A stretch of 32,000 bases of DNA from Candidatus Electronema aureum (GCA_004284765.1 NQJD01000005.1:1-32000); one strand, 5' to 3'. Positions 3,801 to 31,212 are shown, counted from the stretch's first letter. The notes: generated from the letters alone by a model not told the origin. Numbers and translations are program-made.

Positions 3801-3808
3801 ATCCTGTC

Positions 3809-5542: not shown

Positions 5543-5568
5543 CCTATAATTTTGCAAATCCCCATCGA

Positions 5569-6726: not shown

Positions 6727-8133
6727 TTAACCTCTTGGTGCTTCAGGTATATGCCCAGCCAAATATGGTGCAATGTCCTCCGGCTTCAGGCGGCATTCCT
6801 CCAAGGCTAATGATTTGATTCCTTCCAGCGGACCAGGCAGCAGGCAGGATTCCGGCTCTTGAAGGATAATTCTACCGCCTTTGCGCACCACTGCTTCCAT
6901 GCCGATTTTCAAATCAACATCCACACCACTGAGCAGCACCACCGAAAGTTTGGCCCCAAAAACTTCTGCTGCCGAATGGAGTAAGTTATCAGCATCCAAG
7001 GACATCTTGTTAAATTCATCTTCCCTGCCAGAGATGAGAGGCATTCCTTGGCGAAGAACGACCTGCCGTTTGCCGTGACAATTACCCATCCGACATTGGC
7101 CACCGAGTAGGTCTTCGCCGATGTCAAGACAGCTCACGGCATAGGGCGTAAAGGCATTAAAATACGAAGCAAGATGTTGAGCAATACCAGGATACATATT
7201 TTGCAGCACCATCACGGCGGTCGTTTCGTCGTATTCAAGCGCAGGAATAATTTTCTGAAGTTCCAGTAAACCGCCTAATCCACCGAGGATTAACAACAAG
7301 CGGTCTGCTGGTTTTGCCGCCAGAGTGATTTTCTTCTCCGCAGGTTTAGGTGACTTAGCCCGGCTGACGTTATCCACGCAAAATTCGTGTACATTCATCA
7401 GGATATACTGAAGCCGCTCACTGATCAACTTCCACGATTCCGGGTTGACCGGTTTGGCCACGACATCGACCGCGCCATAGCGCATGAAGTCCATCATCTT
7501 GAAAGCCAGCTGCTCATTGAAATTGCTGACTAAAACTACCGGTGCTGGCGAGCGAATCATGATGTGTTTGAGAGCCACGTCACCACTCATCACCGGCATA
7601 GTCATATCCAAGGTGACGAGGTCAGGCACCTGCATTTCCAAGAATTTCAGAGCTTCTTTGCCGTTGGTGGCTGTACCAACCACCTTAGCCTTGATCTGAT
7701 CTTCAAAGAGCTTAACAAAGGCCTTGGTGAAGAAGCGCGAATCATCAACCACCAGCACCTTGGGCAATCCGTCACCTTCTTCTGCCGTAGTCGAAGCAGC
7801 TGGTCGATTTTGCTCATCAATGCGGCGGGCTGCTTCTAAGAGGAGAAAATTCCACGAGGCATCAATACTGCGCTGATTAGTCTTGGCGAAAAGCATACTG
7901 AAGGTGCCGGACGGCCACGTCATGATCCGGTAGAAGGCTTCCTCTCCGGTCAGCTCGCCGAATTCGGCATGAATGATCTCATTGTCGGAAAAATACAGCA
8001 CGCCGAGATTATCCTCGCTGAGGACGCTCAGTTTACGGTCATCACCAGACAAGCAAGCAAACTGGACGATATCGACCAAACCAAGACCTTCAATTTCGCC
8101 GACAAAGCCGTTTCCGATAGAATTTTTTTTCAT
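6727..8133 (-). CDS. PATAN(DUF4388) - receiver - CheB-like (catalytically degenerate) protein
   Basis: N-terminus GLGLVDIVQFACLSGDDRKLSVLSEDNLGVLYFSDNEIIHAEFGELTGEEAFYRIMTWPSGTFSM (DUF4388/PATAN pattern). REC: KVLVVDDSRFF...PDLVTLDMTMPVMSG...AKP. The C-terminal CheB_methylest-like region has ILGGLGGL in place of IGASTGG and LQNMYPG in place of TQHMPPG. Confidence 0.8.
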   Translation of the reverse strand: MKKNSIGNGFVGEIEGLGLVDIVQFACLSGDDRKLSVLSEDNLGVLYFSDNEIIHAEFGELTGEEAFYRIMTWPSGTFSMLFAKTNQRSIDASWNFLLLEAARRIDEQNRPAASTTAEEGDGLPKVLVVDDSRFFTKAFVKLFEDQIKAKVVGTATNGKEALKFLEMQVPDLVTLDMTMPVMSGDVALKHIMIRSPAPVVLVSNFNEQLAFKMMDFMRYGAVDVVAKPVNPESWKLISERLQYILMNVHEFCVDNVSRAKSPKPAEKKITLAAKPADRLLLILGGLGGLLELQKIIPALEYDETTAVMVLQNMYPGIAQHLASYFNAFTPYAVSCLDIGEDLLGGQCRMGNCHGKRQVVLRQGMPLISGREDEFNKMSLDADNLLHSAAEVFGAKLSVVLLSGVDVDLKIGMEAVVRKGGRIILQEPESCLLPGPLEGIKSLALEECRLKPEDIAPYLAGHIPEAPRG

Positions 8134-8151
8134 GGCTGGGCTATGTTGCGC

Positions 8152-8904
8152 CTACAGGGCGTTGAAGGTAACATGGGTGGCAACAAAGACCAGCATGAGG
8201 ACAAACAGCTCTTTGAAAGAAGTTTCCGGCACTCGCTGAAGGAGTCGTGAACCCAGCTGCGCACCGAGCAAAACGCCGATGATAGCTGGCAAGGCCACCT
8301 GCCACTGCACAGCCCGTCCGAGCAGTAGCTGTGCTGTCACCGCCGTCACGGAAAGAAGCAGCATCAGGGCAATGCAGGTGGCGACCGAGCGAGTCATAGC
8401 TAACCCGCAGCGCATGTTGAAGAAAGGCACTAACCAATCTCCCACGCCAACACCGAGAAAACCGGTGAGCAAGCTAGCAGTGGCGGCAATAGGACGACCC
8501 CGGCGGCGGGCAATCTGCATATCCGGTTGATCTGAACCTTGAACAAAAAAATCATCGCCGCGCATAAAAGCATAGGCGATAAAAAAAATCACCAAGCCGA
8601 GAAAAAGCTTAATATAAATTGGATTGAGCAAAAAGGATATGAACACTCCAATCAACACCCCAGGCAGACTGACTGCGGCCATCATTATGACCAAAGACCA
8701 ATGAATTAGCCCGGCGCGACTGTTGCTGACTGTGGCACTGAATTGGCCAAAAGTTTGGATGACAATCGTGCAAAGCAGGGCCTCATCAGGACGAAGATTA
8801 GTGACAGAGAGCAGCACTGGCATCCACAACACCCCGCCACCCAGCCCGAAAAACAAAGCCACGGTGGCGATTATCATACCCAAGGGCAGCATCAGCCAGT
8901 CCAT
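8152..8904 (-). CDS. TauE/SafE (DUF81) family anion permease
   Basis: About 8 TM helices. The N-terminal FFGLGGGVLWMPVL and internal GFLGVGVGDWLVP glycine-rich motifs are typical of DUF81. The start ATG overlaps the upstream stop (TGATG). Confidence 0.75.
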   Translation of the reverse strand: MDWLMLPLGMIIATVALFFGLGGGVLWMPVLLSVTNLRPDEALLCTIVIQTFGQFSATVSNSRAGLIHWSLVIMMAAVSLPGVLIGVFISFLLNPIYIKLFLGLVIFFIAYAFMRGDDFFVQGSDQPDMQIARRRGRPIAATASLLTGFLGVGVGDWLVPFFNMRCGLAMTRSVATCIALMLLLSVTAVTAQLLLGRAVQWQVALPAIIGVLLGAQLGSRLLQRVPETSFKELFVLMLVFVATHVTFNAL

Positions 8905-9449
8905 CAGTGATAAAAACTCCTGCCAAATTCGGCCAAAGTTTCCTCAAGCTCGTCAATCAGCTGCACAGCCTCCTCAATCTTCGTTGCCTCGTCGCCTTCT
9001 GTCAAGGTTTGGCGAAGCTGCTCGGCCATATTTTTTGAAAGCAGGATCAACTCCTGCTCGTTGGCATTGAGGTCGTTGATGTGTCGAGACAGTTCACCCA
9101 GCTCGTCCTTACTTTCCTCTGACAGGGCAACAGAAAAATCGCCTGCGCTCATGGCTCGCGTCCGCTCGATGATTTGCTCTAGTGGAAACATAATCCGTTT
9201 AATGAAGAGCATCATTACTAAGCCAATAGCTAAGAGCAGGGTACTCAACATCACCCTGACCTTGAGGAGAATGCGACCGACAATATCCAGCGGCAAGGTG
9301 CCACTAAGATTTTCTTTGAGCAGGCCCAGCACCTCTTTACCTCGGAGAAACAACTCGATCTCCACCGCCATCGTTAAAAAAACAATGCCGATAAAAACGA
9401 TGTAAAACCCCATCTGGCGCTGAAGGCCGCTTTTAGGAACGAACTTCAT
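8904..9449 (-). CDS. HAMP-only membrane protein (2 TM + HAMP + acidic coiled coil, no output domain)
   Basis: TM1 GFYIVFIGIVFLTMAV, TM2 LSTLLLAIGLVMMLFI, then the HAMP-like IKRIMFPLEQIIERTRAMSAGDFSVALSEESKDELGELSRHINDLN. Confidence 0.6.
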   Translation of the reverse strand: MKFVPKSGLQRQMGFYIVFIGIVFLTMAVEIELFLRGKEVLGLLKENLSGTLPLDIVGRILLKVRVMLSTLLLAIGLVMMLFIKRIMFPLEQIIERTRAMSAGDFSVALSEESKDELGELSRHINDLNANEQELILLSKNMAEQLRQTLTEGDEATKIEEAVQLIDELEETLAEFGRSFYH

Positions 9450-9461
9450 GAAAGGTGGTGG

Positions 9462-9890
9462 TTAGTCGTTTTTGAAGAGCTTTTCTAAATATTTTTTGAA
9501 GGCCCGTAGATCGTCTTCATAAATATCCTTAAAGCGCACGCCGATGTCGTACATTTCTTCTTCTGGCAGATGTTGCGCCCAAACTACTTCGGCAATTGCC
9601 GTCAGCGGTCTGGAAGCAGTGCCTGCGTCGAGAATGGAGATAATGTTGTTCAAATAATGCTGCCAGCCGCGTAAATCCACAGAAAGCTGAAGAATAGTAC
9701 CTGGTTCGTACAGGTCCTCTGCGGTAAAGCAGAGACCGTTTTCGGCTAAATTCTTGGTGGTTGCAGGCTTTGCGATCAGATTGGTCATCGGATACTGGAG
9801 CTTCGTCACCATCAGAGCCGCGTTTCGCTCAATTCTGGGAGTTTCCCGCCTGCATTTGCCTATGTTTTCCTCCGTCATGCCTTTTCCCAT
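9462..9890 (-). CDS. PilZ-domain protein (partly degenerate c-di-GMP motif)
   Basis: RRETPR (RxxxR) followed about 30 aa later by NLAENG, where the PilZ consensus is (D/N)xSxxG (Ser replaced by Ala). Size and beta-rich pattern fit a stand-alone PilZ. Confidence 0.55.
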   Translation of the reverse strand: MGKGMTEENIGKCRRETPRIERNAALMVTKLQYPMTNLIAKPATTKNLAENGLCFTAEDLYEPGTILQLSVDLRGWQHYLNNIISILDAGTASRPLTAIAEVVWAQHLPEEEMYDIGVRFKDIYEDDLRAFKKYLEKLFKND

Positions 9891-9902
9891 CCCTATTTCT
9901 GT

Positions 9903-10916
9903 TTACTCCAGAATATCCTTTAGTTCCTGAATATCTTCGATGTTCACCGCTGCGGCGAACTGATCATCTACTAACCCATCAATTTTGTTGTCAGCAATCA
10001 GCCTGTGCTTGACCATCAAGTCAGCGATCTGCTTCATTTCCTCTGTCTTGGGAGTGAAGTGATCAAACACCACTTTGCGACTGCTGAGGGCGTATTTTGC
10101 CACATCAGACGACTGCGACCAATATTCAGCGGCGATATCAGCAGCCTGCTCCTGATGCGTTTTTGCCCAAAGACTGGCACGGGCCGCTCCTTGGACAAAT
10201 TTTTGCACCATTTTTGGGTCTTGGGCAATGGTGTTCTGTTTAACGATAACCAAGTTGCAGATGAAGTTTGGCCACACATCTTCTACATGCAGAACCAGAT
10301 CGGCAGAACCACCTTTGAGACTCCGGGCGGCAAACGGTTCACCGACATAATAGGCATCCAAAGAGCCAGCGGCCAAAGCCGAAGCCATATCCGGTGGATT
10401 TAGCTCAACGATATTCACCCGGCCTTGCATTCCTTTTTGTTCCATCAGCTCCAGCAGACTAAGATTATGGCCAGAATAGCGAATGGGTACTGCCACCGTC
10501 TTGCCGCCTAAATCCTCGAAGCTGCGGACGTTAAGACCTTTTTTCGCCACCAAAGTGCTTTCATGTCGGTTGCCGATATACACAACCTTTACGTCCACGC
10601 CCTGCTGCCGCAGCACGACCGACAAAGGCGCGATAATGAAAGCAGCCTGAATTTTGTCGCTGCGGAGTGCCGAGGCCATCTCAGCAAAGGAGCTGAATTT
10701 CAGAGCCTTGAAATAAACATCGCTGCTATCCTTGCTCACATGATCGAGCAGCGGGGCGGACATGTTGGTGATGACCGGCATGTAGCCCATCGTGAAAACT
10801 TTTTTTTCACCGTAATCAAAATTCAGCCAGAGATGCAGAACAGTGATCAGCACCAACCAGCCACCCACGCCAGCTGCCAGCTGCCAACCTTTGGACAACT
10901 TGAGGTCAGACTGCAT
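9903..10916 (-). CDS. ABC transporter substrate-binding protein, NitT/TauT (NMT1/SsuA-like) family, N-terminally membrane-anchored
   Basis: TM anchor WQLAAGVGGWLVLITVLHLW. MGYMPVITNMSAPLL..., YYVGEPFAARS and FICNLVIVKQ are typical of nitrate/sulfonate/bicarbonate-type binding proteins. Confidence 0.75.
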   Translation of the reverse strand: MQSDLKLSKGWQLAAGVGGWLVLITVLHLWLNFDYGEKKVFTMGYMPVITNMSAPLLDHVSKDSSDVYFKALKFSSFAEMASALRSDKIQAAFIIAPLSVVLRQQGVDVKVVYIGNRHESTLVAKKGLNVRSFEDLGGKTVAVPIRYSGHNLSLLELMEQKGMQGRVNIVELNPPDMASALAAGSLDAYYVGEPFAARSLKGGSADLVLHVEDVWPNFICNLVIVKQNTIAQDPKMVQKFVQGAARASLWAKTHQEQAADIAAEYWSQSSDVAKYALSSRKVVFDHFTPKTEEMKQIADLMVKHRLIADNKIDGLVDDQFAAAVNIEDIQELKDILE

Positions 10917-11700
10917 AATTTACCCCTAGCATGAAGAACAATTCGTCCCGGAGCTTGGCCAGTTCAGTATCCTTTTTAAAAAAATTGCGCGGATGAGAAA
11001 AATCGAGTTTGCGGTTGAGCTTGATCTGCGAAGGTCTGCGGCTGAAAACGATGATCCGGTCACCCATGACTAAGGCATCGTCAATGTCATGGGTGACGAT
11101 CAGGATGGTTTTGCCAAGATACTGGTGCATGTTGACCACTTCTTCGCGCAGCTTCATGTGGGTGAGGAAGTCCAAGCCGCTGAACGGCTCATCCATGATC
11201 AGAATGTCAGGATTGACTACCAAAGCGCGAGCTATCTCCGCCCGCCGCAACATCCCGCCAGAAAGCTGATGCGGATAATGTTCCTCAAAACCATCTAATT
11301 CAACCATTTCAATGTATTCCTGTATCTTCTCGCATTTTTCGTCCTGATTTTCTATCTTGCGCAGACCCAGTTCTACATTCTGCCAAACTGTCATCCACGG
11401 CAGAAGACCACTGTGCTGAAAAACAAAAATGTTGTCTGAACTGGGACCAGTGATAGCCTTGCCGTCAATGATTACTGAACCAGAGGTCTGATGATCAAAA
11501 CCGGCGACAATCCGCATCAATGTTGACTTGCCGCAGCCAGAAGGACCGAGGAAGCAGACCATCTCGCCGTCCTCAATTTCAATATTGATGTCCTCCAACA
11601 CGGGAACTGTTTGACCGAAAGGAGCAAGGTCTTCCTCTCGCCTCGTTTTGCGCCGATTGACAAACTCCTTGTTCAAGCCGCTAATTTGAATATGCCCCAT
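10906..11700 (-). CDS. ABC transporter ATP-binding protein, NitT/TauT family
   Basis: True start MGHIQISGL at 11700 with AGGAGAA upstream. The track ORF extension to 11910 overlaps the permease. Walker A GPSGCGKST, LLPWMTVWQNVELGL, LSGGMLRRAEIARAL, ILIMDEPFSGLD. Confidence 0.85.
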   Translation of the reverse strand: MGHIQISGLNKEFVNRRKTRREEDLAPFGQTVPVLEDINIEIEDGEMVCFLGPSGCGKSTLMRIVAGFDHQTSGSVIIDGKAITGPSSDNIFVFQHSGLLPWMTVWQNVELGLRKIENQDEKCEKIQEYIEMVELDGFEEHYPHQLSGGMLRRAEIARALVVNPDILIMDEPFSGLDFLTHMKLREEVVNMHQYLGKTILIVTHDIDDALVMGDRIIVFSRRPSQIKLNRKLDFSHPRNFFKKDTELAKLRDELFFMLGVNYAV

Positions 11701-11708
11701 GTTTTCTC

Positions 11709-12476
11709 CTATGGCTGGCGGATGCCCCAAGCTGCGGACTCGATCCTGCCCAGCCGCCGCATAATAGAATCCAGCAGGATGCCGATCAGGCCAATGACAA
11801 TCATGCCGTCCATGACGTAGTCTAAACGCAGACCGTTGCGGGCATCCAAAATTAAATAGCCCAACCCGGATTGCACAGCGATCATCTCGGCAGCCACAAC
11901 CACAATCCAAGCGATGGTTACAGTTAAGCGGAGGGCGGTGATAATAGCTGGAATGATGGCCGGAATAACAATTTTTTGAATCACTTCCGCCCGGCTGAAA
12001 TCAAAATTAGCCGCAACATAAAAAAAGGTCGGGTTGATAGATTGTACCGCCACCGTTGTCGAGACGACAATAGGGAAGAAGCTGGCCAAGAAAATCAGAA
12101 AGACCGCAGGCTTGTCGCCAATACCGAACCAAAGCATGGCTAAGGGTATCCAAGCCAAAGGCGAGATGGGACGCAAGAACTGGATGATCGGATTGAAGAT
12201 CAGTGCCGCAGTCTGGTTTCTGCCGAGAATGATCCCAATGGGAATACCCAAAACAGCCGCTAAATAAAATCCAGCAGTGACTCGAAATAGACTAGCCACG
12301 GTGTGCTTAAAGATCGCACCGTTCTTGATCAGTTCAATCATGCTGAAGAAGACTTGACTGGGGCCAGGCAGTACGTGGCTGTCCAAACCGGCAAAGCGCA
12401 CGGCGATCTCCCAAATCAATACTAAGACAGTGAAAGATAAAAAGGGCGCAAGTTTATGAGCAAAAGCAGAATTCAT
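11709..12476 (-). CDS. ABC transporter permease, NitT/TauT family
   Basis: Six-TM BPD_transp_1-type protein with the EAA-like loop region (VAAEMIAVQSGLGYLI). Confidence 0.8.
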   Translation of the reverse strand: MNSAFAHKLAPFLSFTVLVLIWEIAVRFAGLDSHVLPGPSQVFFSMIELIKNGAIFKHTVASLFRVTAGFYLAAVLGIPIGIILGRNQTAALIFNPIIQFLRPISPLAWIPLAMLWFGIGDKPAVFLIFLASFFPIVVSTTVAVQSINPTFFYVAANFDFSRAEVIQKIVIPAIIPAIITALRLTVTIAWIVVVAAEMIAVQSGLGYLILDARNGLRLDYVMDGMIVIGLIGILLDSIMRRLGRIESAAWGIRQP

Positions 12477-12497
12477 GGGCGTGTCACCTGTTCGCGA

Positions 12498-13412
12498 TCA
12501 GCCGACGATTTCTTGAGCCAGCTGCATGTATTGGAGGGAGGCACTGCTTTTTTCCGCATAATGACTGATCGGCGCGTTGACAATATGTGATTCCTGCATC
12601 TTGTCGTCCTTTCCGATCACCGTTCTGAACAGGTTATCCCGATAGGTCTGACGCAGTTTATCGCAGATCACCTTTTCCGAGGTGTTTCTTTCATCGTACA
12701 TGGTGATCAGCACCTTGCACTCCACCTCTTGGTTGATGCTTTTTTTCAGCACATTGATGATGTCATGAATCTGACTGACCCCGTGCATGGACAAATATTC
12801 GCAGGTGGAAGGGACAATCACCATATTGGCAGCTACCAGCGCATTGAGGGTGAAAAATTCAATCGAGGGCGGCGTATCGATCAGCACATGATCGTAGCTG
12901 TCTTGGATGGTGCGCAGCTTGTCTCGGAGCAAATACTCAAAATTGTGCTGACTCAAATATTTTTTCTTGAGCAGGGCCATTTTGCTGCTGGAGGGCAGCA
13001 GGGAAAGGTTGGCATATTTAGTTTTCACTACCGCTTCGCCAATATTCTTCACCCCACCGGTCAACACCTCATAAAACGAGCGAGTCTTCCTGAAGCCGAG
13101 CAAAATGGTTAAGTTAGCCTGCACGTCAAAATCAATCAACAAGACCCGCTTGCCCATTTTTGCCAACGCTGCGCCAAGATTCAGAGTGGTGGTCGTTTTA
13201 GCCACCCCTCCTTTTTGATTGCTGATCGCAATGACCCGACTGTAGTCGGGATGCACCTCATCCTGAAGCAAAAAGGAATCCTCAGCATGAGCCGCTCTAT
13301 AGACAATGAAGCGGTGACTGCATTTGTGACAACGAACCTTCAGCTCTGGTTTACCCAGCAGGTCATCAGCAATCTTGTATTTTGTCCTGCATTTTTCACA
13401 TGTGATAATCAT
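12498..13412 (-). CDS. MJ0042-type zinc ribbon fused to a ParA/MinD-family ATPase
   Basis: MIITCEKCRTKYKI...VRCHKCSHRF (CxxC...CxxC) followed by the deviant Walker A ISNQKGGVAKTTTTLNLG and LLIDFDVQANLT, VLIDTPPS. Confidence 0.85.
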   Translation of the reverse strand: MIITCEKCRTKYKIADDLLGKPELKVRCHKCSHRFIVYRAAHAEDSFLLQDEVHPDYSRVIAISNQKGGVAKTTTTLNLGAALAKMGKRVLLIDFDVQANLTILLGFRKTRSFYEVLTGGVKNIGEAVVKTKYANLSLLPSSSKMALLKKKYLSQHNFEYLLRDKLRTIQDSYDHVLIDTPPSIEFFTLNALVAANMVIVPSTCEYLSMHGVSQIHDIINVLKKSINQEVECKVLITMYDERNTSEKVICDKLRQTYRDNLFRTVIGKDDKMQESHIVNAPISHYAEKSSASLQYMQLAQEIVG

Positions 13413-13460
13413 AGGATTTTTCTCTGTTTTATCGGATTATCGCCGTCCGTATCAGCCGGA

Positions 13461-14489
13461 TCACCGTTTGATCAAGGAGACGATGGCCTCGGCGAGCCTG
13501 CTTTCCTCCACGATCATATCCACCCGATTTCGCTTAATGGCTGAGTCGGTCAGATTGGGATAAACGCAACTCTCGACGCTCTGGGCTATAGTTTTTCCAC
13601 CTTGTTTTTGAATCATAGCAAAGCCTTCTGAACCGTCGTCACCGTAACCGGTGAGCAGCACGCCCACAGATTTTTCCCGGAACGTCTCAGCGGCTGAAAT
13701 GAACAGAGTGTCCAAGGGCTTATCGGTTGGCTCGCCGATTCTGAAGCAAGGATCACCGTACTCGCTGAAATCGACAGTCACAGACAGCACATTGGACTGA
13801 ATGTAACAAACCCCTTGCTCGATCACCTTGCCGTCCTCCGCAACTGCAATTTTCCAGCTGGCGAATTCGTTGAATTTTTCGACAAAGGCAGGCAGTATCT
13901 TGGGCGAAATCTCCAGCAAAATCACCGCAGCTGCCGACAGGCCAGATTCTAACCGAGTCATCAAGCGGATAAAAGAATTTGGCCCAGTGAGCGAGGTGCC
14001 AATAACCACCAACGACTGCGGCCCGCCGGGATTTTGCGGGTCGGTGCGACCGCTTTTTCTCACTCGCACCCGGCGGATGTTGCCAAAATTAACGGCAGTG
14101 GCCAATTTGATTCGATCAACAATCTGCTGCTTGGCTACATGAATGTCGCTGGAAATTGCGCCAGAGGGCTTGGCGACAAAATCAACCACGCCAAGACGCA
14201 GAGCCTCAAAAGTGATGGAGCCGTCGCTGAAGAGCGAACTCAGAACGACAATCGGTACCGGAGCCTCGATCATGATATGACGGATGGCTTGGAGACCGTC
14301 CATCACCGGCATATCGATGTCGAGCGTGATTACGTCTGGGTGCAGCTCTTTAATTTTTTTCAGCCCTTCTAGGCCGTTGCGAGCCACCCCGATCACTTCA
14401 ATCTCTGGATCAGACTCCAACAGATCGCTGATCGCCTTGGTCATGAAGGTGGCATCGTCAACCACAAGAACCTTATATTTTTTGTCCAT
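13461..14489 (-). CDS. cheB: CheB-like response regulator (REC + methylesterase fold; catalytic His not conserved)
   Basis: REC: KVLVVDDATFM...PDVITLDIDMPVMDG...AKP. Esterase region: VIGTSLTGP (Ser kept), LLEISPKILPAF in place of TQHMPPGF (His to Ile by my alignment), LLTGYGDDG (Asp kept). Confidence 0.8.
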   Translation of the reverse strand: MDKKYKVLVVDDATFMTKAISDLLESDPEIEVIGVARNGLEGLKKIKELHPDVITLDIDMPVMDGLQAIRHIMIEAPVPIVVLSSLFSDGSITFEALRLGVVDFVAKPSGAISSDIHVAKQQIVDRIKLATAVNFGNIRRVRVRKSGRTDPQNPGGPQSLVVIGTSLTGPNSFIRLMTRLESGLSAAAVILLEISPKILPAFVEKFNEFASWKIAVAEDGKVIEQGVCYIQSNVLSVTVDFSEYGDPCFRIGEPTDKPLDTLFISAAETFREKSVGVLLTGYGDDGSEGFAMIQKQGGKTIAQSVESCVYPNLTDSAIKRNRVDMIVEESRLAEAIVSLIKR

Positions 14490-14546
14490 GCCCGCTGTTC
14501 AGCCTCCGTGCTGCTGAAATGATGCCAATGACTTCCTTCACTACCC

Positions 14547-17912: not shown

Positions 17913-18006
17913 ATTGCTCACCCTGTCGCAGTCCGACCATGCAGGTTGTCAAGTTTTTGCAGCTTTTCCGGCCCGGCTCCTCCGCCGGACATGTTTTCCT
18001 TATCCT

Positions 18007-18582
18007 TCAGGCCGTCGGATATTTGCAAGCCGCACCGCCACCGCAGCAGGTTCCATCTTTGCCGCAGTCCGATTCAGCCATCATCCGCTCGTGTTCCAGT
18101 CTGATTTCAAAATAGCTGAATGACGTAACGATGTCTTTCAGATTTTCATTACTTTGTCGCATTTGTTCAATATCTTCGTCAAGTTCTGATTGCGGCTCCG
18201 CGTCGCTCAACGCTGCGATTCGTTCCAACAGTTCGCGGCTCTCTTGGCCGTGATTCCAAACAAAAAGCAACACTTCCTGCATGTTGACGGCCAGATCGTT
18301 GATGCTTTCGCCCAGCCGCCCGATCTCATCAGCCCTGTGGATACGATTAAGGCGGTCCAAATGGCCGTCGATCATCTGCCGAGTGACAGCATGAACATCT
18401 GCCAGTGGCTTCAGTACATAAATTTGAAAAGAAAGGAGGGCCGCTGCTAAAACACAGAGTAAGAGGCCCAGAGCTGCAAGCGCGGCGACTGGCGGTCCGC
18501 CGCGCATAACGAAAACAGCCGTGAACAGAGTCAGCAAAACGGTCAAAGCAAAGAACGATAGAGCCTTGTTCTTCAGACTCAT
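18007..18582 (-). CDS. HAMP-only membrane protein with Cys-rich C-terminal tail
   Basis: Start MSLKNK at 18582 (AGGAAG 8 nt upstream). TM1 LSFFALTVLLTLFTAVFVM, TM2 AALAALGLLLCVLAAALLSF. HAMP-like YVLKPLADVHAVTRQMIDGHLDRLNRIHRADEIGRLGESINDLAVNM. The tail is ESDCGKDGTCCGGGAACKYPTA. Confidence 0.6.
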   Translation of the reverse strand: MSLKNKALSFFALTVLLTLFTAVFVMRGGPPVAALAALGLLLCVLAAALLSFQIYVLKPLADVHAVTRQMIDGHLDRLNRIHRADEIGRLGESINDLAVNMQEVLLFVWNHGQESRELLERIAALSDAEPQSELDEDIEQMRQSNENLKDIVTSFSYFEIRLEHERMMAESDCGKDGTCCGGGAACKYPTA

Positions 18583-18692
18583 GCCGTTAGCTTCCTGGGG
18601 CGAGGTTGACATAGGCGACAAATCCGTGTTAGTGAAAATGTTCTTTGTGGCAATGCCCGCATTGCCGGATTGCTCCCTGCTCAGACAGAGAG

Positions 18693-19076
18693 TCAGATAC
18701 CAGAGTCTTGGCCTCCGCCGTCCTCTTCCTCCTCGATCATATCCAGAATTTCTTTGGCCTTGTGCTTGCTGGCAAAGCCACGTGCGCCCAGCTTCTCCAC
18801 CTCTGCTCGATAGACTTCCTCGTCAAGATTGGAGAGGAAAATGATATGAGCTGATTTATCAAAGCGGAGAATTTCCTTGGCCGCAGCTAAACCGTCCATA
18901 TCCCGCATGGTGATGTCCATGGTCACGATGTCGGGCTTCAGGGCCTTATACAGCTCAATCGCCTCAATGCCATTTTTGGCTTGCCCCACCACGATGTGTC
19001 CCGGCGGCTGGAGCAGCTTGACAATCATCTTGCGCATCATGGAGGAGTCATCGACAACCAGAACCCGTTTGCTCAT
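18693..19076 (-). CDS. cheY: CheY-like single-domain response regulator
   Basis: KRVLVVDDSSMMRKMI...PDIVTMDITMRDMDG...IIFLS. GGGAGA lies upstream, and the gene starts 5 nt after the cheW stop. Confidence 0.85.
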   Translation of the reverse strand: MSKRVLVVDDSSMMRKMIVKLLQPPGHIVVGQAKNGIEAIELYKALKPDIVTMDITMRDMDGLAAAKEILRFDKSAHIIFLSNLDEEVYRAEVEKLGARGFASKHKAKEILDMIEEEEDGGGQDSGI

Positions 19077-19081
19077 CTGCG

Positions 19082-19597
19082 TTATTCTCCCTTGATTGAA
19101 CCCAGCTGTTGCAGCTCATCCGCCATCAGAATGCGGTTGAAATCCAACAGAATGAGGAGGCTACCGCCGATGTCGCAGACCCCCTTAATGTAGCGGTTCG
19201 CCAGCCCGGCCATGATCACATCAGGCGGCGGCTCGATGGTGCTTTCCATAATTTTGAGTACCTTAGTCACTGAATCGACAATGAAGCCGGTAACGCGGCC
19301 TCCAATGTCAAGAATCAGTATCCAAGCATCTTTGGTGTCGCTTTCTTTCCGATATAAATTCAGCCGCTTGCGCAGCTCAATAACCGGAATGATGTTGCCG
19401 CGCAGGTTAATAACACCCTCAATAAAATCCGGTGAATTAGGCACCGACGTAATCGGCGCGGAACGGATGATCTCCTGCACCATGAGTATGTCCACGCCGA
19501 ACTGCTCCTTGCCGATGGTGAAACCGACCAGCTGCATGAGCTGCTCTTTTTCTTCCCGGTCGGCAAACCTCTTTTCGGCTGCAAATCCCTCTGGCAT
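19082..19597 (-). CDS. cheW: CheW coupling protein
   Basis: LVGFTIGKEQFGVDILMVQEIIR...VPNSPDFIEGVINLRGNIIPVIELRKRL is the canonical CheW fold signature. GAGGAG lies 8 nt upstream. Confidence 0.9.
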   Translation of the reverse strand: MPEGFAAEKRFADREEKEQLMQLVGFTIGKEQFGVDILMVQEIIRSAPITSVPNSPDFIEGVINLRGNIIPVIELRKRLNLYRKESDTKDAWILILDIGGRVTGFIVDSVTKVLKIMESTIEPPPDVIMAGLANRYIKGVCDIGGSLLILLDFNRILMADELQQLGSIKGE

Positions 19598-19648
19598 GAA
19601 TGGTCTCCTCGTTGCGCGGTGTCCCGCGTTTTCTTCGTTGAAAGCGAA

Positions 19649-19681
19649 CTGCTCCGCGCCGGAAAGATAGACGCGGAGCAG
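19649..19681 (-). promoter_or_regulatory. Intercistronic GC-rich stem-loop between the MCP stop and the cheW start
   Basis: On the minus strand, CTGCTCCGCG, a 13-nt loop and CGCGGAGCAG (10-bp perfect stem) are followed by UUCGCUUUC. This could be a partial terminator or stability element. Confidence 0.3.
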
Positions 19682-19704
19682 CAGACAAGAGGCGGTCCAG
19701 CAAA

Positions 19705-22700
19705 TTAGAGTTTGAACTGCTCAACCTGCTCCCGCAACTTTGCAGAAGCGGAGGTCAACTCACCGGTGATCGCCACAACGGTACCTGCGCCTTCTACGGT
19801 CTTCTTCGCACCTTCAAAGGACTGCTGGGCGATTTTGATCGCGTTCGCAGAACGCTGACCTTGGGCAGTAACCAGCTCGTTCAGTACTTCGGTACGACGC
19901 ACAATCTCGCGCATCTCACCGTCGATGGTGGTCGAACCAACCGTGGCTTCGGCAACCAGCGCACTGATGATTTGAGACTGTTGAACCATCGCAGCGAGAG
20001 CGTCCTCAGCAGCTTTACGACGAGTACCCTGCTCACCGGCCATTGTAGCAATCTGCTGGGCCAGTTTGTTCAGCTCTTGAACGAAGTTCTGAACACCTTG
20101 GATGTCTTTCTCAACAACGTGGGCAACCGACGCGATTTCCTCAATCGACTTCATGTTGTTACGACCGCTGGCATCGATCAAGGCGAGCGCGCTTTGCAGC
20201 TGCTCGGAGTATCTCGCACCCTCGTCCACTTTGGCGGTCGAATCTTTGATCAGCTGGGTAATTTCCTTCGCAGCTTCAGAGGAACGTTGCGCCAGCTTAC
20301 CAACCTCGTCGGCAACAACCGCGAAGCCCTTACCGTGCGCACCGGCACGGGCGGCCTCGATCGCAGCGTTCAGAGCCAGCAAGTTGGTCTGCTCCGCGAT
20401 CTCGGTAATAACGCTGATGATTTCAGAAATCTGGCCAGAAGACTCAGCAATAGCGTGCATACCAGCAACCGTGTTTTCAACAGCGGTACGACCGGCGTTC
20501 GCAGCTTTCAGTGATTCTTGACCCTGCTGGGTGGCGTTGTTAATTGCTTGACCCATGTTACGCACAGCGGCGGTGATCTCGTTCATCGAGGCCGTCACCT
20601 GCATAACCATTTTACCTTGCTCACCGGACGTGGACACAACCATTGCGCCGGTCTGTCCCATGTCGCCTACGCGGTTAGTAACGGTTTCAGCTTCTTTTGA
20701 TTGCTTGATAACCGCGCTACTTACCGTGTTCATGGATTGAAGCAGCTCGGTAATCGTGCGCTGCGATTTCTGCGCTGATTCCTGCTGGGCTTTCGCGCCC
20801 TCAGCAACCTGACCAGCGGTCTGACCAATCGTTTCCAACAGCTCTCGGGTTTTTTCAGACTGCTTCACCTCGATCTCAGCACGGTCACGGTTACCAGCGG
20901 CGCGGTTAGCCACGTCCTTGGCGTTGGTCGCAACCGTCTGCGAAACCTGCTCAACCTGTTTAAACGACCTGTTCAACTCAAGCAACATAGAGTTAAACTC
21001 CGCAGCCATCTGTCCTACCTCGTCGCCCGAAGCAACCGGCACGTTCAGGGTCAGGTCTCGTTCAGACGCAACCTGTCGTACAACCTCGGCGATGGAAACG
21101 ATGGGTTTAGAGAATGCACCTCCGATGAACCAAGCCATGACGGCGATGGCAGCGAGCAGGAGGATACCGGTGAAGATAGCGCGGTTTCTTGTGTCAGTTA
21201 CGGCTTGAAGAGCCTCTTTGGTGTCGATCTTGGAGACCAGAACCCAGTCAAAGCCAACCCCCAACTCTTTGTCCAGCCGCAGCTTGGTAGCCGCGCCGAT
21301 GATCGGGTCGCCGACGTAATCCACAGAGTGCGTGAAGATGCCTTCCTCGCCCGCCTCAATTGCTTTTTCCACCAAGACGGTTTCCAGCTTTTTCTCGCCC
21401 AACAGCTGCAAGCCTTTCCGGGAGTCGGAACGGGGCCGCAGATCTTCGGTACTAACCATGAAGGTCTCACCGGTCTGACCCAGACCCGTCTGCTCATCCA
21501 TGTAGGCCTGAAGAACGGTGTTGGTGACGCGGATGGCGATCATGGCGATAACTTGATCCTTCTCGATGATCGGCGCGGCGATGAAGGCTAGCGGTCTGTT
21601 GGCCGGAGCGTAGTGCGCGTAGTCGGCCAGCATGACCTTTTTGCTGTCGCGGACATTCTGGAGCAGCTTGCTCAGGTTGGTGTCCTTGAATTGACTGTCG
21701 GAGAAAAGGTTGGCGTGATACTCCTTCTCCTTCTTGACGGTGTAGTAGCAGTAGCCGGAGGGGTCAGTCAGATAGATGTCGAAGTAGTCATACGCCTTGC
21801 TGAACTTTTGCAGCAAGTCCTCGGTTTGACCCGCGCCTTGCGGTACCAGAATCTCGGTCAGGGCACCGGTGGTGATCAGACCCCAGTTCACGCCGGGAAC
21901 GTTCAGCGGCAAATAGGTGGTGATTTCGTACAAACCCGTCGGGCCGACTTGGAAGAAGGAGCCTTTCTGACCGGAGAGCACCAGCTCGGAGTTCTTACCG
22001 GGCTTGGGATCGCCGATCTTACCTTGCTTGACAGTACGGTCAGAAGCCAGCTTGGGGTTATCCTTGGTGCCTGTGACCATGTAGGACTCGAAGGAGGCTT
22101 CCAGACCCTCGCGCTCTTGAACGATGTCGTTGATGTCTTTTGGAGAAAGCTGAATAACGACGATGCCGAGAACCTTGCCTTCCGACTTGATGGGCGTACC
22201 CAAGAAGAGTGCTTGCGCGTTGTTGGAAGGCGCATAGAGGGAGTAGTCCTCCATCGAGGTTTCCTTCAAAGCCTTGGGGAAGAGACGGCCTACACCGGAG
22301 TCTTTCAGGCTGCCCTTAACCACGTTCTGGCCTACGTCCGACTCTTCTTCGGCAGAGGCATAGACAATATCGCCCGCTGGCGAGATCAGCATTACGTCAT
22401 AATAGCTGTGCGCTGCCGTGAACTCTTTGAACATCGGGCCGTATTTGTCCCGGTAGCCGTTCCACATGCTGCCGCCGATCTTGCCGCCCTCCTCTTGGAA
22501 CGCCTGGTTGAACTCCTGCATGGCGGTGGCGGTGGCGTAGCCAGCGGCCATAACCTGCGCGTCCGCGAACCGGCGCTTCATGAAGCGCTCGATGGCCTGT
22601 TTCTTGCCGGCCTCGAAACCTTGCATCTTGCCGAGAGCCTCATTGTGCAGACCCTCCATGATGTCGCCGAGAATCTGCATGTCGCCGTAACGCTCATGGA

Positions 22701-22905
22701 AGTAGCGCACGATCTCTTTCTTTTTCAGCTCGCGGACAGACTCAAGCTGCTGCTGGGCACGGGCTGTCAGAGCTTTGGATGTTGACCAGTAGTCCAGCAC
22801 CGCGTTGATCAGGTAGGGCACCGTTCCTACCATGAGCAGCAGGGCCATCAGCTTCCACCGGAGGCCCCAGCCCTGTTTGTAGGTTTTTACCTCTTGTCGT
22901 TTCAT
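19705..22905 (-). CDS. Methyl-accepting chemotaxis protein with a very large periplasmic tandem Cache-like sensor, HAMP and a long signalling domain
   Basis: TM1 about aa 18-38, TM2 about aa 576-598, HAMP about aa 600-650. Signalling hairpin [38 protein letters not shown]. Strong RBS AGGAGGGAG upstream of ATG 22905. Confidence 0.9.
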
Positions 22906-22976
22906 TCCCTCACTCCCTCCTGTCTCTGTTCCGGTTTCGGCACTACGGGCCTGCGGTTCCGCCCGCCTGCCGCCTC

Positions 22977-23009
22977 CTGACTACGGTTTCCTAAGGAAAC
23001 CGTAGTCAG
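22977..23009. promoter_or_regulatory. 33-nt near-perfect palindrome (15-bp arms, 3-nt centre) in the leader of the MCP operon
   Basis: CTGACTACGGTTTCC TAA GGAAACCGTAGTCAG. A related half-site-like string, CACTACGG-GCCTGC-GGTTCC, lies at about 22941-22960. No flanking U-run. Confidence 0.5.
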
Positions 23010-23081
23010 CCGCGCTCCAAGGATGATACCCATGTCTTTTCCATGTCCTCCTGTTAAAAAAATTGGTGCCACGCTCTTTTG

Positions 23082-23110
23082 TTTATATTGATATATTGCA
23101 AATTTCGCAA
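23082..23110 (-). promoter_or_regulatory. Candidate sigma70-type promoter for the MCP/che operon
   Basis: Minus strand: TTGCGA (rc of 23105-23110), 17-nt spacer, TATAAA (rc of 23082-23087). It would give a leader of about 170 nt containing the palindrome. Based on motif match only. Confidence 0.3.
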
Positions 23111-23162
23111 GCCTATCCTGCTGTGGTGGGTGTTTTTTTGTGTTTCGGTACCCAACATTCCC

Positions 23163-23188
23163 GTAGGGGCAGGCCCCCGTGCCTGCCC
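23163..23188 (+). repeat. REP-like hairpin copy a (intergenic)
   Basis: GTAGGGGCAGGCCCCCGTGCCTGCCC. Stem GGGCAGGC/GCCTGCCC. Confidence 0.7.
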
Positions 23189-23232
23189 AAAAATGCCACG
23201 CCGTGCAATCATTGCCGCGCCCGTGCAATCAA

Positions 23233-23258
23233 GGGCGGACACAGGGGTCCGCCCCTAC
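23233..23258 (-). repeat. REP-like hairpin copy b (inverted relative to a; overlaps the RAYT stop codon)
   Basis: The rc reads GTAGGGGCGGACCCCTGTGTCCGCCC. Stem GGGCGGAC/GTCCGCCC, with compensatory changes relative to copy a. The TAG stop of the transposase lies in the GTAGGGG head. Confidence 0.7.
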
Positions 23259-23480
23259 ATGAACGGCGTTGGGGCATTTAATTGATCTTCCGTCCACCGG
23301 GCCGGGTTGTTTTCAATGTATTCACGAATTCCGTTCAATTCGTGTTCGTCACGAATGACGCGCTCCCAATAATTGCGCTGCCATAATTTGCCGGGAAAGG
23401 GCCGCCATCCGCAACCCTTCACCCCGTCCGCATATCGTTTTGTGGTCAGGGTTTTGTAGCGGCGCATTACATCCGGCAAG

Positions 23481-23506
23481 GTAGGGGCAGGCCCTTGTGC
23501 CTGCCC
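23481..23506 (+). repeat. REP-like hairpin copy c (inside the RAYT coding sequence)
   Basis: GTAGGGGCAGGCCCTTGTGCCTGCCC. It is read on the minus strand in frame as GQAQGPAPT. Confidence 0.7.
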
Positions 23507-23672
23507 TATCATTCCTTGTATCTGCCCAGAAAGAACCACAATGCCATGCAGATGATTCGGCATAACGGTAAATGCGTCAAGCGCAACACCGGAATAATAT
23601 TCTGGCATTTCATGCCATATTTCCCGAATCATCTGCCCCGCTGTATTCAGCCGCATTTCAGAAGGAACATCA

Positions 23673-23698
23673 GGGTAGGCACAGGGGCCTACCCCTAC
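23673..23698 (-). repeat. REP-like hairpin copy d (inside the RAYT coding sequence, opposite orientation to c)
   Basis: The rc reads GTAGGGGTAGGCCCCTGTGCCTACCC. Stem GGGTAGGC/GCCTACCC (compensatory). It is read in frame as VGVGPCAYP. Confidence 0.7.
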
Positions 23699-23840
23699 AA
23701 CAATCTCGCCGAATAAACATTCCCGATCTTGGGTGCAGATGGTCACAAAATATGCCCCGCCCTGCGAATAATCATAACCTGTTAGACGAATGGAACGGCG
23801 ATGATGAATTGCCGGTTCGTAACGCATCGCATAAACGCCC

Positions 23841-25610
23841 TCACGCCGACAAAATACCGTGAATCGTCTCCGGGATAGCCGCATCTACCAGCACAGCTGC
23901 CTCACGGCAATGCGCGGACACTGACCAAGGCATATCCCTATACAGGCAACCCGCCGGGTCTTGCACGATACCTGCGCCGCCCACTCGGAGGATTTCTGCC
24001 ATACCTTCAGTGCCATCCTCACCCACGCCGGAGAGAATCACCGCCACCGCGTCGTCTTTCATGATTTCCGCCACCGAAAAAAATAGCATGTTGATCGAGC
24101 CGCGCTGGGTGGCAAAAGGCGCGGAGGAAAGGTGCAGTACCAAGCCGTCTTCGCGTTCATGCACAGTCATATATTTTTCGCCCGAAGCGAAATAACAGAC
24201 ACCCGGTTCCAATGGAGCGTTGTTCTCGGCCCGCCTAATTCGCAGCGGTGAAAAACGATCCATGTATTCAACAAAGGCATCAAGATGTTTGGCCGGGGCG
24301 TAAAACATGACCAAATAAGCAGCGGGATACGCGGCGGAAAGATGAGGCAGGAGTTTGAGTAACGCACCGTAGCCGCCTTCTGCTGCGCCAATAGCCACGA
24401 CTTTTTCGCAGCGGCTACCTGGCGGAAAACCCGCCTGTTTGTCCTTGTTCACCGCCCGAACATAACGCACCGCCTCCAACTCCACTTCAGCAGCAAGATG
24501 CACCTTACGGGCAATGTCCCTCGTCTGCTCTTCAAGATCGGTTTCAGCGTTTCGAGAGGGCTTGGCAACAAAATCCACAGCTCCGTACTTGAGTGCATCA
24601 AAAGTAACGATTGCGCCGTCTTGAGTCATGGAACTGAGCATTACCGTGGGCGTGGGTGCTTGAATCATCAAATGTTTGATGGTCTTCAAGCCGTCCATGA
24701 TTGGCATTTCTACGTCCAACGTAATGACATCCGGCTTGAGCTGAGGAATAAGCTGAAGAGCCTCTTCGCCGTTCTCAGCCTCACCTACCACCTGAACAAA
24801 GGGATCGTCCTTAAAGATGCCCGCGATCACCTTGCGCATCATCTTGGAGTCATCCACGATGAACAGGCCGATCTTCTGCTGCGCCATGCGGTTTGTCTCC
24901 TGTGCTAATCCGCTATTTTTAGCGGTTTCCCGTTTCAGCCTTGAGGTCACGCGAATGGTTTCCAGCTCCTGCGTGCTGATGGTGCGCTCTGGCGTGTACT
25001 CCTCTGATTCAATCAGAAAGCCTAAAGGCTGCCAGTCGAAAATTTCCAAGGCCGCTTCAGCCGCCTTTTTTTTTTCGCAGGCCGCGTTGATCAGGATTCC
25101 TTTGTCAAAATCGAGCAAGCCGTGTTTTTTACTGCCGAAACGGACGGAAATTCTTGCTGTCTTCTGGACTGCCTCAAAAAAAGCCACAATTTTGGCTACA
25201 GAAATACCAGGCTGATAATCGTTTTCATCTAAGCGTTGGAGACTTTCCAAAACTGCGCAGCCGATGGTCTCTAAGTTGGAAGGTTTGGCGAGGAAAAGAA
25301 AAATGGAATCTTTACAAGAGCAGTTTGCCACGGCCTTGATCGCGGGATGCTCGCCGTTGGTCATCACAATGCACTGGATGTGCCGGTACGACGTGGAGAC
25401 CAAAGAAAGTACCTCTAAGCCGTTCAACCCGCCGCCATGTAAATTGACCACCAGCACCGCGATCTTTTCCTGCCTGAGGATAAACAACTCCTCACCCCGG
25501 CTGGTGGCGGTCAACACCTCATACTGGCGGAAAGATTCCAGCAATTCAGAAAGATCATTGACAAAGAGCAGATCATCGTCAACGATAAGAATTTTGGATT
25601 TATCAGACAT
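23841..25610 (-). CDS. pseudo-receiver - PATAN(DUF4388)-like - receiver - CheB-like (catalytically degenerate) protein
   Basis: REC1: KILIVDDD...IAVLVVNLHGGGLNG (Asn at the phospho-acceptor position). Middle: ISVAKIVAFFEAVQKTARISVRFGSKKHGLLDFDKGILINA...AEAALEIFDWQPLGF (PATAN-like). REC2: LFIVDDSKMMRKV...PDVITLDVEMPIMDG...AKP. CheB-like region: IGAAEGG in place of IGASTGG, VMFYAPAKH in place of TQHMPPGF, LSGVGEDG. Confidence 0.8.
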   Translation of the reverse strand: MSDKSKILIVDDDLLFVNDLSELLESFRQYEVLTATSRGEELFILRQEKIAVLVVNLHGGGLNGLEVLSLVSTSYRHIQCIVMTNGEHPAIKAVANCSCKDSIFLFLAKPSNLETIGCAVLESLQRLDENDYQPGISVAKIVAFFEAVQKTARISVRFGSKKHGLLDFDKGILINAACEKKKAAEAALEIFDWQPLGFLIESEEYTPERTISTQELETIRVTSRLKRETAKNSGLAQETNRMAQQKIGLFIVDDSKMMRKVIAGIFKDDPFVQVVGEAENGEEALQLIPQLKPDVITLDVEMPIMDGLKTIKHLMIQAPTPTVMLSSMTQDGAIVTFDALKYGAVDFVAKPSRNAETDLEEQTRDIARKVHLAAEVELEAVRYVRAVNKDKQAGFPPGSRCEKVVAIGAAEGGYGALLKLLPHLSAAYPAAYLVMFYAPAKHLDAFVEYMDRFSPLRIRRAENNAPLEPGVCYFASGEKYMTVHEREDGLVLHLSSAPFATQRGSINMLFFSVAEIMKDDAVAVILSGVGEDGTEGMAEILRVGGAGIVQDPAGCLYRDMPWSVSAHCREAAVLVDAAIPETIHGILSA

Positions 25611-25876: not shown

Positions 25877-26013
25877 TCTATTAATACCATTATGTTGAAT
25901 TGTAATTTTTACTGCTTTCGATTTCATGGCAGCAGAGAGTATATGCCACAATGTCGCTCTTTTCAAGTAATCACTGCGGAGGTCTGCGGATTCTCTGCCC
26001 GAAGGAGAAAAAA

Positions 26014-31167: not shown

Positions 31168-31212
31168 GCTGGTCAACCCGATTCAGAAAAAAGGAAAAAG
31201 TCCCGGCGATGC

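Follow-up and report, generated by a model that had tools for sequence, protein, structure and literature searches.

Three CheB-like proteins with broken catalytic triads in a conserved chemosensory operon of the cable bacterium Candidatus Electronema aureum

Introduction

What purpose does a CheB fold serve when its catalytic residues are gone and no CheR is encoded beside it? Methylation governed by CheR and CheB is a central principle of adaptation in chemosensory signaling, and this question is raised by a locus of the freshwater cable bacterium Candidatus Electronema aureum GS. The locus lies in a stretch of 32,000 nucleotides (nt) (GCA_004284765.1 NQJD01000005.1:1-32000; hereafter the window), which carries a tightly packed chemosensory operon encoding three CheB-like proteins. 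In this lineage of systems, the CheB fold and its phosphorylation site survive in three proteins, but the chemistry has been lost. The cluster had been noticed in an earlier reading of the sequence alone (hereafter the original prediction), and we examined it here through domain, structure, and neighborhood comparisons. A protein identical to one of the three, type B, is encoded on the 2.94 Mb chromosome OW818638.1 (GCA_942492785.1).

Cable bacteria are multicellular conductive filaments that need placement across oxygen-sulfide gradients, and the operon is a candidate for the circuit that steers them. They glide, probably by means of type IV pili, and display oxygen taxis. We propose, with moderate confidence, that the operon is a conserved and methylation-free variant of type IV pilus/gliding control, in which PATAN domains provide the output and the dead CheB folds serve as phosphorylation-gated, non-catalytic modules. 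This suggests an undescribed way to steer gliding filaments.

Results

The three CheB-like proteins, designated types A, B, and C, consist of 589 amino acids (aa) (23841..25610), 468 aa (6727..8133), and 342 aa (13461..14489), respectively, and are all encoded on the minus strand. Domains were assigned by Pfam scans of six-frame open reading frames (ORFs), among which those of at least 80 aa were tested. Type A matched two receiver (REC) domains and CheB_methylest, type B matched DUF4388/PATAN, REC, and CheB_methylest, and type C matched REC and CheB_methylest. The catalytic positions (Ser164/His190/Asp286) were located by HMMER alignment to the CheB structures 1A2O and 6YMZ, together with a MAFFT alignment. 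They are occupied by A-Y-D in type A, L/G-N-D in type B, and S-E-D in type C, while the phospho-acceptor Asp of the receiver (Asp56) is retained in all three and does not vary within their families. Furthermore, the GxSxGG oxyanion motif is altered in the CheB-like domains. The Pfam CheB_methylest scores were 70, 120, and 132 bits, with the lowest obtained for the protein modeled by AlphaFold2 (see below), and the scores against the NCBIfam CheB model NF001965 (150.8, 255.3, and 290.9 bits, with 255.3 for type C) all fell under its cutoff of 293.

The loss extends throughout the relatives of each protein. Among the full-length relatives of type B (36-100% identity), the receiver Asp is present in 113/113, the Ser nucleophile in 0/113, and the His in 1/113, and every member has Leu or Gly at the nucleophile position. 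Only 2/118 relatives of type A carry S-H-D, most having Ala in place of the nucleophile. In the type C clade (about nine representatives, 50% identity), the His position is always Glu or Asp; the Ser is kept in three representatives, and the nucleophile position is Gly in some. Asp286 is retained by almost all members of types A and C. As a control, 97 genuine S-H-D CheBs were present in the type C homologue list, and they appeared only from about 40% identity downward. Judged from these alignments, the triad loss in the three families is old and not a recent decay. The claim of the original prediction that each of the three proteins lacks the full triad is thus borne out by both the structure-guided alignment and the family-wide counts.

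Type B, the most divergent of the three, yielded an AlphaFold2 model with a mean predicted local distance difference test (pLDDT) of 87.9 and a predicted template modeling (pTM) score of 0.80. In Foldseek, this model matched full-length CheB (1A2O, TM-score of 0.79), the CheB catalytic domain (3SFT, TM-score of 0.85), and 1CHD, indicating that the CheB fold is retained in the predicted structure. Because the fold and the phosphorylation site have been kept while the triad has been lost, the CheB fold probably has a second, non-enzymatic job; we infer that this role is one of output, scaffold, or phosphate sink. The public annotation of these proteins is "chemotaxis protein CheB". Since the defining triad was examined and found broken in each of them, they should not be filed under this name, which masks a probable non-enzymatic role.

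The original prediction had placed PATAN domains in both fusion proteins. In type B, the PATAN domain is clear (DUF4388, 58 bits, E = 1e-15) and precedes the receiver. Type A consists of a pseudo-receiver (Asp to Asn), a degenerate PATAN domain, a receiver, and the CheB fold, and Asn occupies the phospho-site of the first receiver in 33/57 long forms. The PATAN signal of the type A protein in the window is marginal (E = 0.02), and we base the assignment on its relatives, which carry a clear REC-PATAN, either fused (the long form, recognizable by Pfam) or separately encoded. The REC-PATAN gene of one relative stands beside a REC-CheB-like gene, and both lie upstream of the receptor gene. The Desulfatitalea type A protein bears a zinc ribbon at its N-terminus in place of PATAN.

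We detected no CheR, CheZ, CheX, CheC, or CheD domains among the tested ORFs of the window. A tblastn search with a CheR probe also found no match in the window, nor in 20 loci of this system (about 18 genomes). The same probe matched in 23 of the ordinary cheB neighborhoods that served as the control. These control loci were the non-relatives from a scan of genome contigs with the type B alignment, in which 7/80 loci were true relatives; the scan was dominated by ordinary CheB receivers, and the pattern LD[IM][NT]MPVM proved to be generic. In a published survey of Geobacter che clusters, every cluster contained cheR and cheB. The predicted absence of CheR therefore holds for the window and the 20 related loci, and that of the other components for the tested ORFs of the window. 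The term "CheR-less" describes the locus, and for the system as a whole we infer it.

Types B and C belong to a row of 14 minus-strand genes running from 22905 to 6727, with intergenic gaps of -11 to 107 nt and several overlaps. The gene calls of the public record match this row and, along with the Pfam domains, the ORF list, and the gap sizes, confirm the 14 packed genes and named domains described originally. The row, with the type A gene at its head, begins at a divergent intergenic region and is convergent with lpxB at its 3' end. A promoter/terminator scan revealed nothing above the shuffled controls, and the Rfam and tRNA scans of the window were empty.

The upstream part of the row encodes the signaling core. 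The methyl-accepting chemotaxis protein (MCP, 1066 aa, 19705..22905) is a transmembrane receptor of dCache-HAMP-MCPsignal architecture. Its dCache region is large and periplasmic, and its signaling hairpin is long, with about 30 heptads per arm. It contains one match to the methylation-site consensus, which is partly conserved in the orthologues. The next genes encode the CheW coupling protein (19082..19597, 131 bits) and CheY (18693..19076), in which the receiver is the sole domain and which shares 60-92% identity with the CheY proteins of the relatives. HAMP1 (18007..18582), with two transmembrane (TM) segments, a HAMP domain, and a conserved C-terminal helix, sits between cheY and cheA in most relatives in which this segment was seen. 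Its ORF extends to 18621, and comparison with the orthologues and the gene call in L001 (related loci are cited by L-numbers) indicates that 18582 is probably the start.

CheA (1124 aa, 14547..17921) comprises an Hpt domain, two Hpt-like repeats, a dimerization domain, an HATPase domain, and a CheW domain at the C-terminus. Only the first Hpt has the histidine (HTIKG). Repeats 2 and 3, one of which is above the Pfam threshold, are mutually homologous and His-less, with Lys and Ala at the His position. The multi-Hpt CheA of the original prediction is thus correct in possessing three Hpt-like domains, with the His confined to the first. The CheA proteins of the relatives have three Hpt matches. 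Published data assign 93% of multi-Hpt CheAs to the type IV pilus (Tfp) or alternative cellular function (ACF) classes.

Several other features of the membrane components were observed. The MCP orthologues have a common QQ/EQ site (AKAQQESA, residues 704-711) and a conserved C-terminal LxEQVEQF; the dead CheB domains might dock at one or the other. A C-terminal pentapeptide tether in the MCP was considered and rejected: QVEQF ends the coiled coil, no linker precedes it, and it is extended in the relatives. The HAMP1 family shows strongly conserved post-HAMP motifs (QEVLLxxWNH and SFxYFE) with no match to a known domain (window, L089, L090, L091, L087, and L011), and a Cys-rich HAMP1 tail (CGKDGTCCGGGAACKYPTA) is found in Electronema proteins only.

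Beyond cheA and the type C gene, the row continues with a ParA protein (12498..13412), identified as Zn_ribbon_4 plus ParA/AAA_31 from Pfam, NCBIfam, and PDB matches. An MJ0042-type zinc ribbon is fused to a Soj-like ATPase with a deviant Walker A motif (KGGVAKT), and a ribbon of the same type is present at the N-termini of the gliding protein GltJ (NCBIfam) and the Desulfatitalea type A protein. The gene adjoins the type C gene in L002, L006-L008, L026, L086, L092, and L093, and cheA in L003.

The transporter genes encode an ABC permease (11709..12476; BPD_transp_1, NitT/TauT type in Pfam and NCBIfam) with 66-84% identity to the permeases of the relatives, an ABC ATPase (10906..11700), and an SsuA/TauA/NMT1-like binding protein (9903..10916). 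The ATPase, assigned from Pfam, motifs, and the public gene call, has intact Walker A, signature, and Walker B motifs; its start is at 11700, and the automatic ORF reaching 11910 was over-extended. The binding protein was identified by Pfam, NCBIfam, and PDB matches, and its one predicted N-terminal TM segment indicates that it is membrane-anchored. All three proteins fit the NitT/TauT importer family. A Sao-type transporter (NCBIfam SaoA/SaoP/SaoX) was rejected, as all scores were far under the cutoffs. The row then encodes a PilZ protein (9462..9890), in which the alignment shows conservation of the c-di-GMP-binding motifs RxxxR and NxS/AxxG; HAMP2 (8904..9449), with two TM segments and a HAMP domain; and a TauE/SafE (TSUP) permease (8152..8904, 143 bits). 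The stop codon of HAMP2 overlaps the start of TauE, and this pairing is repeated in L026 and L093. The type B gene is the last of the row.

E. aureum, E. nielsenii, and E. halotolerans share one gene order, which runs from CheA through type C, Zn-ribbon ParA, permease, ATPase, binding protein, PilZ, HAMP2, and TauE to type B. It likewise occurs in Electrothrix laxa and another Electrothrix, as well as in a Thermodesulfobacteriota metagenome-assembled genome (MAG) at 57% identity, in which the type A gene comes after that for type B. Altogether, the full order is kept in six genomes of cable bacteria, spanning two genera. Conservation also extends to the upstream half (type A, MCP, CheW, CheY, HAMP1, CheA, and type C). 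The binding protein has its nearest homologues at 56-61% identity, and these include proteins of MAGs labeled Gammaproteobacteria and Planctomycetota. In both of these MAGs, the genes again run from CheA and type C (here T-E-D) through Zn-ribbon ParA, permease, and ATPase to the binding protein; PilZ genes are nearby in the former, and the latter has a HAMP-TauE pair, a receiver-HD-GYP gene, and two PilZ genes. In a Desulfobacterales MAG, the binding protein is beside type C, followed by a hybrid kinase. The transporter is missing from the simpler relatives L003, L004, L087, and L088.

Because the order recurs across distant lineages, we regard the transport genes as an integral, if optional, module, and PilZ, HAMP, and TauE as integral too. 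The neighborhood comparison proposed in the original prediction thus finds the che-ABC-PilZ-TauE order conserved, and the transporter is not a chance insertion. No description of the system was found in the searchable literature (inactive CheB, PATAN-CheB, or cable-bacterium che genes), in agreement with the earlier impression that the combination was unfamiliar; it is, nevertheless, conserved and widespread, and not peculiar to one genome. The presence of the ABC importer and TauE in a conserved chemosensory operon suggests that transport and taxis signaling are connected in a way not yet described.

Among the relatives, the cultured Desulfatitalea alkaliphila encodes cNMP-PATAN, type A, CheW, CheY, CheA, type B, type C, Zn-ribbon ParA, HAMP2, and TauE. 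This locus (L026, strain M08but, NZ_JALJRB010000004.1 76478-91704), with a CheA of 1550 aa, comes from an isolate in which genetics might be feasible and is a possible experimental model. Two further observations concern the Planctomycetota-labeled MAG (L093): a protein of >1341 aa with CheW and LysM domains is encoded after the cluster (13787-17092), and two ORFs within it (230 aa, 5454-6146; 372 aa, 9171-10289) have no Pfam match.

A link to the pilus is suggested by the PATAN domain and by the gene neighborhoods. In Synechocystis, the PATAN domain binds PilB1 and PilC, is sufficient as an output domain, and is enough to reverse phototaxis. The cyanobacterial Tfp-class systems combine a PATAN-receiver with CheY, without CheB and CheR, and PATAN genes often neighbor mglA and mglB. 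These published findings support the statement in the original prediction that PATAN-REC proteins are known from type IV pilus/gliding systems. In two more distant relatives, the genes neighboring the pseudo-CheB trio encode an ATPase of TPR-MshEN-T2SSE (PilB-like) architecture, a GTPase resembling MglA, and a Roadblock protein resembling MglB; the loci in which PilB-like, MglA-like, or MglB-like genes neighbor the trio are L004, L005, and L088.

The type A gene is separated from the 14-gene row by a RAYT-like Y1 transposase gene (23255..23884, minus strand; Pfam Y1_Tnp 24.9 bits) and, directly downstream of it, an inverted pair of repetitive extragenic palindromic (REP) sequences (GTAGGGGC...) at 23163..23258. 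Four REP copies of the GTAGGGGC type occur at 23163-23698, versus 0.02 expected by chance, and two of the four are within the RAYT ORF (23481-23515 and 23672-23699). The RAYT sequence has the HUH motif NHLHG, a later Tyr, and adjacent GTAG-type REPs. It scores above the Pfam Y1_Tnp cutoff and, at 60.2 bits, under the cutoff of 80 for NCBIfam REP_Tyr_transpos; given this score and the internal REPs, it may be decaying.

In Electrothrix laxa, the corresponding slot (L089 11786-11991) is empty and type A is directly upstream of the receptor gene, whereas in Electronema sp. PJ (L090 11786-12372) the slot holds an 87 aa and PemK toxin pair. In L087, L089, and L091, the MCP gene follows immediately after type A. 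By this comparison, the RAYT is a lineage-specific insertion. Since the slot is empty or differently filled in the relatives, type A, the fifteenth gene, is the first gene of the operon, and its described relationship to the row, interrupted by RAYT/REP, is upheld. The slot itself (window 22906-23884) gathers selfish elements.

Two paralogous proteins combining cyclic nucleotide monophosphate (cNMP)-binding and PATAN domains are encoded farther upstream (28892-29980 and 30043-31176, minus strand, from Pfam), outside the region originally delimited. Their genes are conserved upstream in L089 and L090, and one adjoins type A in L026, which indicates that the pair belongs to the che neighborhood. 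The proteins also have a Cys-rich N-terminal region of about 120 aa (CSCP...C...CGGC), with only a marginal Pfam zinc-ribbon match.

Three more genes of the window separate the che operon from the cNMP-PATAN pair. Those for a CN_hydrolase and cytidylyltransferase-like fusion (26879-28150, minus strand) and a HEAT-repeat protein (28147-28854, minus strand) are syntenic in Electrothrix. The third, for an orphan phosphonate-type binding protein (25951-26919, plus strand), is found in Electronema sp. PJ and not in Electrothrix laxa. At the other end of the window (2085-4516, plus strand), a gene for a 571 aa AAA_22/STAND-like NTPase has a 4-nt overlap with the start of a stand-alone ABC-type ATPase gene. 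This pair lies upstream of a GFO/IDH/MocA oxidoreductase gene and lpxB, and the public gene calls (L001) include it as well.

Discussion

The proposed system would operate as follows. The dCache receptor, CheW, and CheA would form an array, which the Zn-ribbon ParA may position, while the two HAMP membrane proteins and the binding protein/ABC/TauE components would feed transport or ligand information into it. The lone His-bearing Hpt of CheA would phosphorylate CheY and the receivers of the three pseudo-CheBs. As in inactive CheB, each receiver may pack on the dead CheB domain until phosphorylation separates them. The PATAN (or Zn-ribbon) modules would then act on pilus motor or polarity proteins, thereby switching the gliding direction; PilB, PilC, or an MglA-like module are the likely PATAN targets. 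The freed CheB-like domain could bind the receptor non-catalytically, either as a stoichiometric feedback that replaces methylation or as a tether of the output to the array. PilZ would add a c-di-GMP input, and the two cNMP-PATAN proteins a cyclic-nucleotide input.

Several observations weigh against this interpretation. Type C of E. aureum retains Ser and Asp, with Glu replacing His, and residual hydrolytic activity is therefore possible. A cheR and an intact cheB may be encoded elsewhere on the 2.9 Mb chromosome. CheA lacks a C-terminal receiver, which 94% of the multi-Hpt Tfp-class CheAs possess, and three Hpt domains are also a published hallmark of the flagellar class F4. Pilus genes are missing from the window and from the surrounding 10 kb of every cable-bacterium locus. 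The transporter reached no substrate-specific NCBIfam equivalog cutoff. Finally, the binding of the receptor by a dead CheB domain is purely conjectural.

The operon could instead serve a different cellular function, with the pathway regulating the ABC importer and TauE, or a c-di-GMP process such as sheath or matrix formation, and the pseudo-CheBs acting on those membrane proteins. The transport genes, PilZ, and HAMP2-TauE are kept inside the operon across very distant lineages; the binding protein (56-61% identity) is better conserved than the signaling proteins and, in L011, adjoins a hybrid histidine kinase instead; and GGDEF, HD-GYP, and additional PilZ genes neighbor the cluster in L092 and L093. 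The window, moreover, is devoid of pilus genes. However, the pilus-motor output of PATAN has been demonstrated experimentally, and the simplest relatives (L003, L004, and L088) represent a pseudo-CheB core without the transporter, two of them with PilB-, MglA-, and MglB-like genes. Cable bacteria also need taxis, and the operon holds a complete MCP-CheW-CheA-CheY core. We therefore consider a different function rather unlikely. That the grouping is mere chance, a che operon broken by an unrelated transporter island, might be argued from the lack of the transporter in L003, L004, L087, and L088 and from the mobile elements that do insert into the operon. The synteny effectively refutes this notion: the order persists as protein identity falls from 100% to about 50%, even in MAGs placed in other phyla, and the gaps are tiny, with several overlapping genes.

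The CheB-like domains might also be enzymes with altered catalysis, performing receptor deamidation, receptor demethylation, or another hydrolysis, for example through the Ser/Thr-Glu-Asp of type C. The near-universal Asp286 of types A and C and the combination in type C of Ser/Thr with an invariant acidic residue at the His position fit this idea, and Ser-Glu-Asp triads occur in other hydrolase families. Nevertheless, the nucleophile position is Ala in most type A, Leu or Gly in all type B, and Gly in some type C proteins, the oxyanion motif is changed, no CheR partner accompanies the system across the 20 loci, and the three proteins all fall under the NCBIfam CheB cutoff, which makes such catalysis improbable. 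A similarly small chance is given to the view that canonical CheR and CheB encoded elsewhere adapt the receptor, leaving the pseudo-CheBs just to shape the kinetics of phosphorylated CheY as a phosphate sink. Four receivers do compete for one His-bearing Hpt, the receptor has one conserved QQ/EQ site, and the evidence on cheR covers the loci rather than the whole genome. Yet a receiver alone would suffice as a sink, and the ancient triad loss in three paralogues, with the remaining fold strongly conserved, suggests that the domain has its own function. The PATAN and Zn-ribbon fusions point to an output role, and in none of the roughly 18 genomes was a cheR gene linked to the system.

A bolder version of the methylation-free control proposed here would assign the adaptation itself to the dead CheBs. 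Upon phosphorylation, their cleft would clamp the adaptation region of the receptor in place of methylation and thereby feed back, stoichiometrically, on the activity of the kinase, with PATAN or the Zn-ribbon released from, or recruited to, motors or MglA-like switches, and the ABC importer, TauE exporter, and HAMP proteins constituting a transport-flux sensor. We regard this version as speculative and quite unlikely. If true, sensing, adaptation, and output would be coupled within single proteins, providing a new adaptation principle for arrays, and the operon would represent the control circuit for the oxygen and sulfide taxis of cable-bacterium filaments.

Among known systems, the cyanobacterial ones (Pix, Tax, and Hmp) resemble the operon most in their mode of operation, and Pil-Chp and Frz resemble it less. 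As in the cyanobacterial Tfp-class systems (Synechocystis Tax1/PixGHIJL), the locus encodes an MCP, CheW, a CheA with multiple Hpt domains, a PATAN-receiver, and a plain CheY, it has neither a functional CheB nor a CheR, and the output would be of the Pix-type, from PATAN to the type IV pilus motor. These cyanobacterial systems serve gliding bacteria, filamentous ones included. The Hmp system of Nostoc is a further member of this class. Unlike in Synechocystis Tax1/Pix, the Electronema PATAN-receiver continues into a dead CheB fold, two more dead CheB paralogues are encoded with it, CheA has no C-terminal receiver, and the operon adds the Zn-ribbon ParA, two HAMP-only proteins, the ABC importer, PilZ, and TauE.

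The Pseudomonas Pil-Chp and Myxococcus Frz systems provide chemosensory control of type IV pili and gliding polarity, and ChpA is a multi-Hpt CheA. The output of Frz proceeds via MglA and MglB, and both systems have active CheR and CheB homologues (PilK/ChpB and FrzF/FrzG). Homologues of MglA and MglB neighbor the pseudo-CheB trio in L004 and L088. To our knowledge, neither Pil-Chp nor Frz has PATAN-CheB fusions or an in-operon transporter.

The individual components show similar mixtures of likeness and difference. The pseudo-CheBs share with canonical CheB (Salmonella 1A2O and Pectobacterium 6YMZ) the receiver, the CheB_methylest fold, and the phospho-Asp, and differ from it in their broken triads, the lack of CheR in the locus, and the extra PATAN, pseudo-receiver, and Zn-ribbon modules among the family. 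ParA ATPases of the ParC/PpfA type are encoded in che operons. Like these, the Electronema Soj-like ATPase with its deviant Walker A is encoded beside cheA and cheB and likely functions in array positioning, while its N-terminal MJ0042-type zinc ribbon sets it apart. The binding protein, permease, and ATPase, whose motifs are intact, fit the NitT/TauT importers (TauABC, SsuABC, and NrtABCD). Unlike in these importers, the Electronema binding protein is membrane-anchored, and the transporter as a whole belongs, in a conserved manner, to a chemosensory operon.

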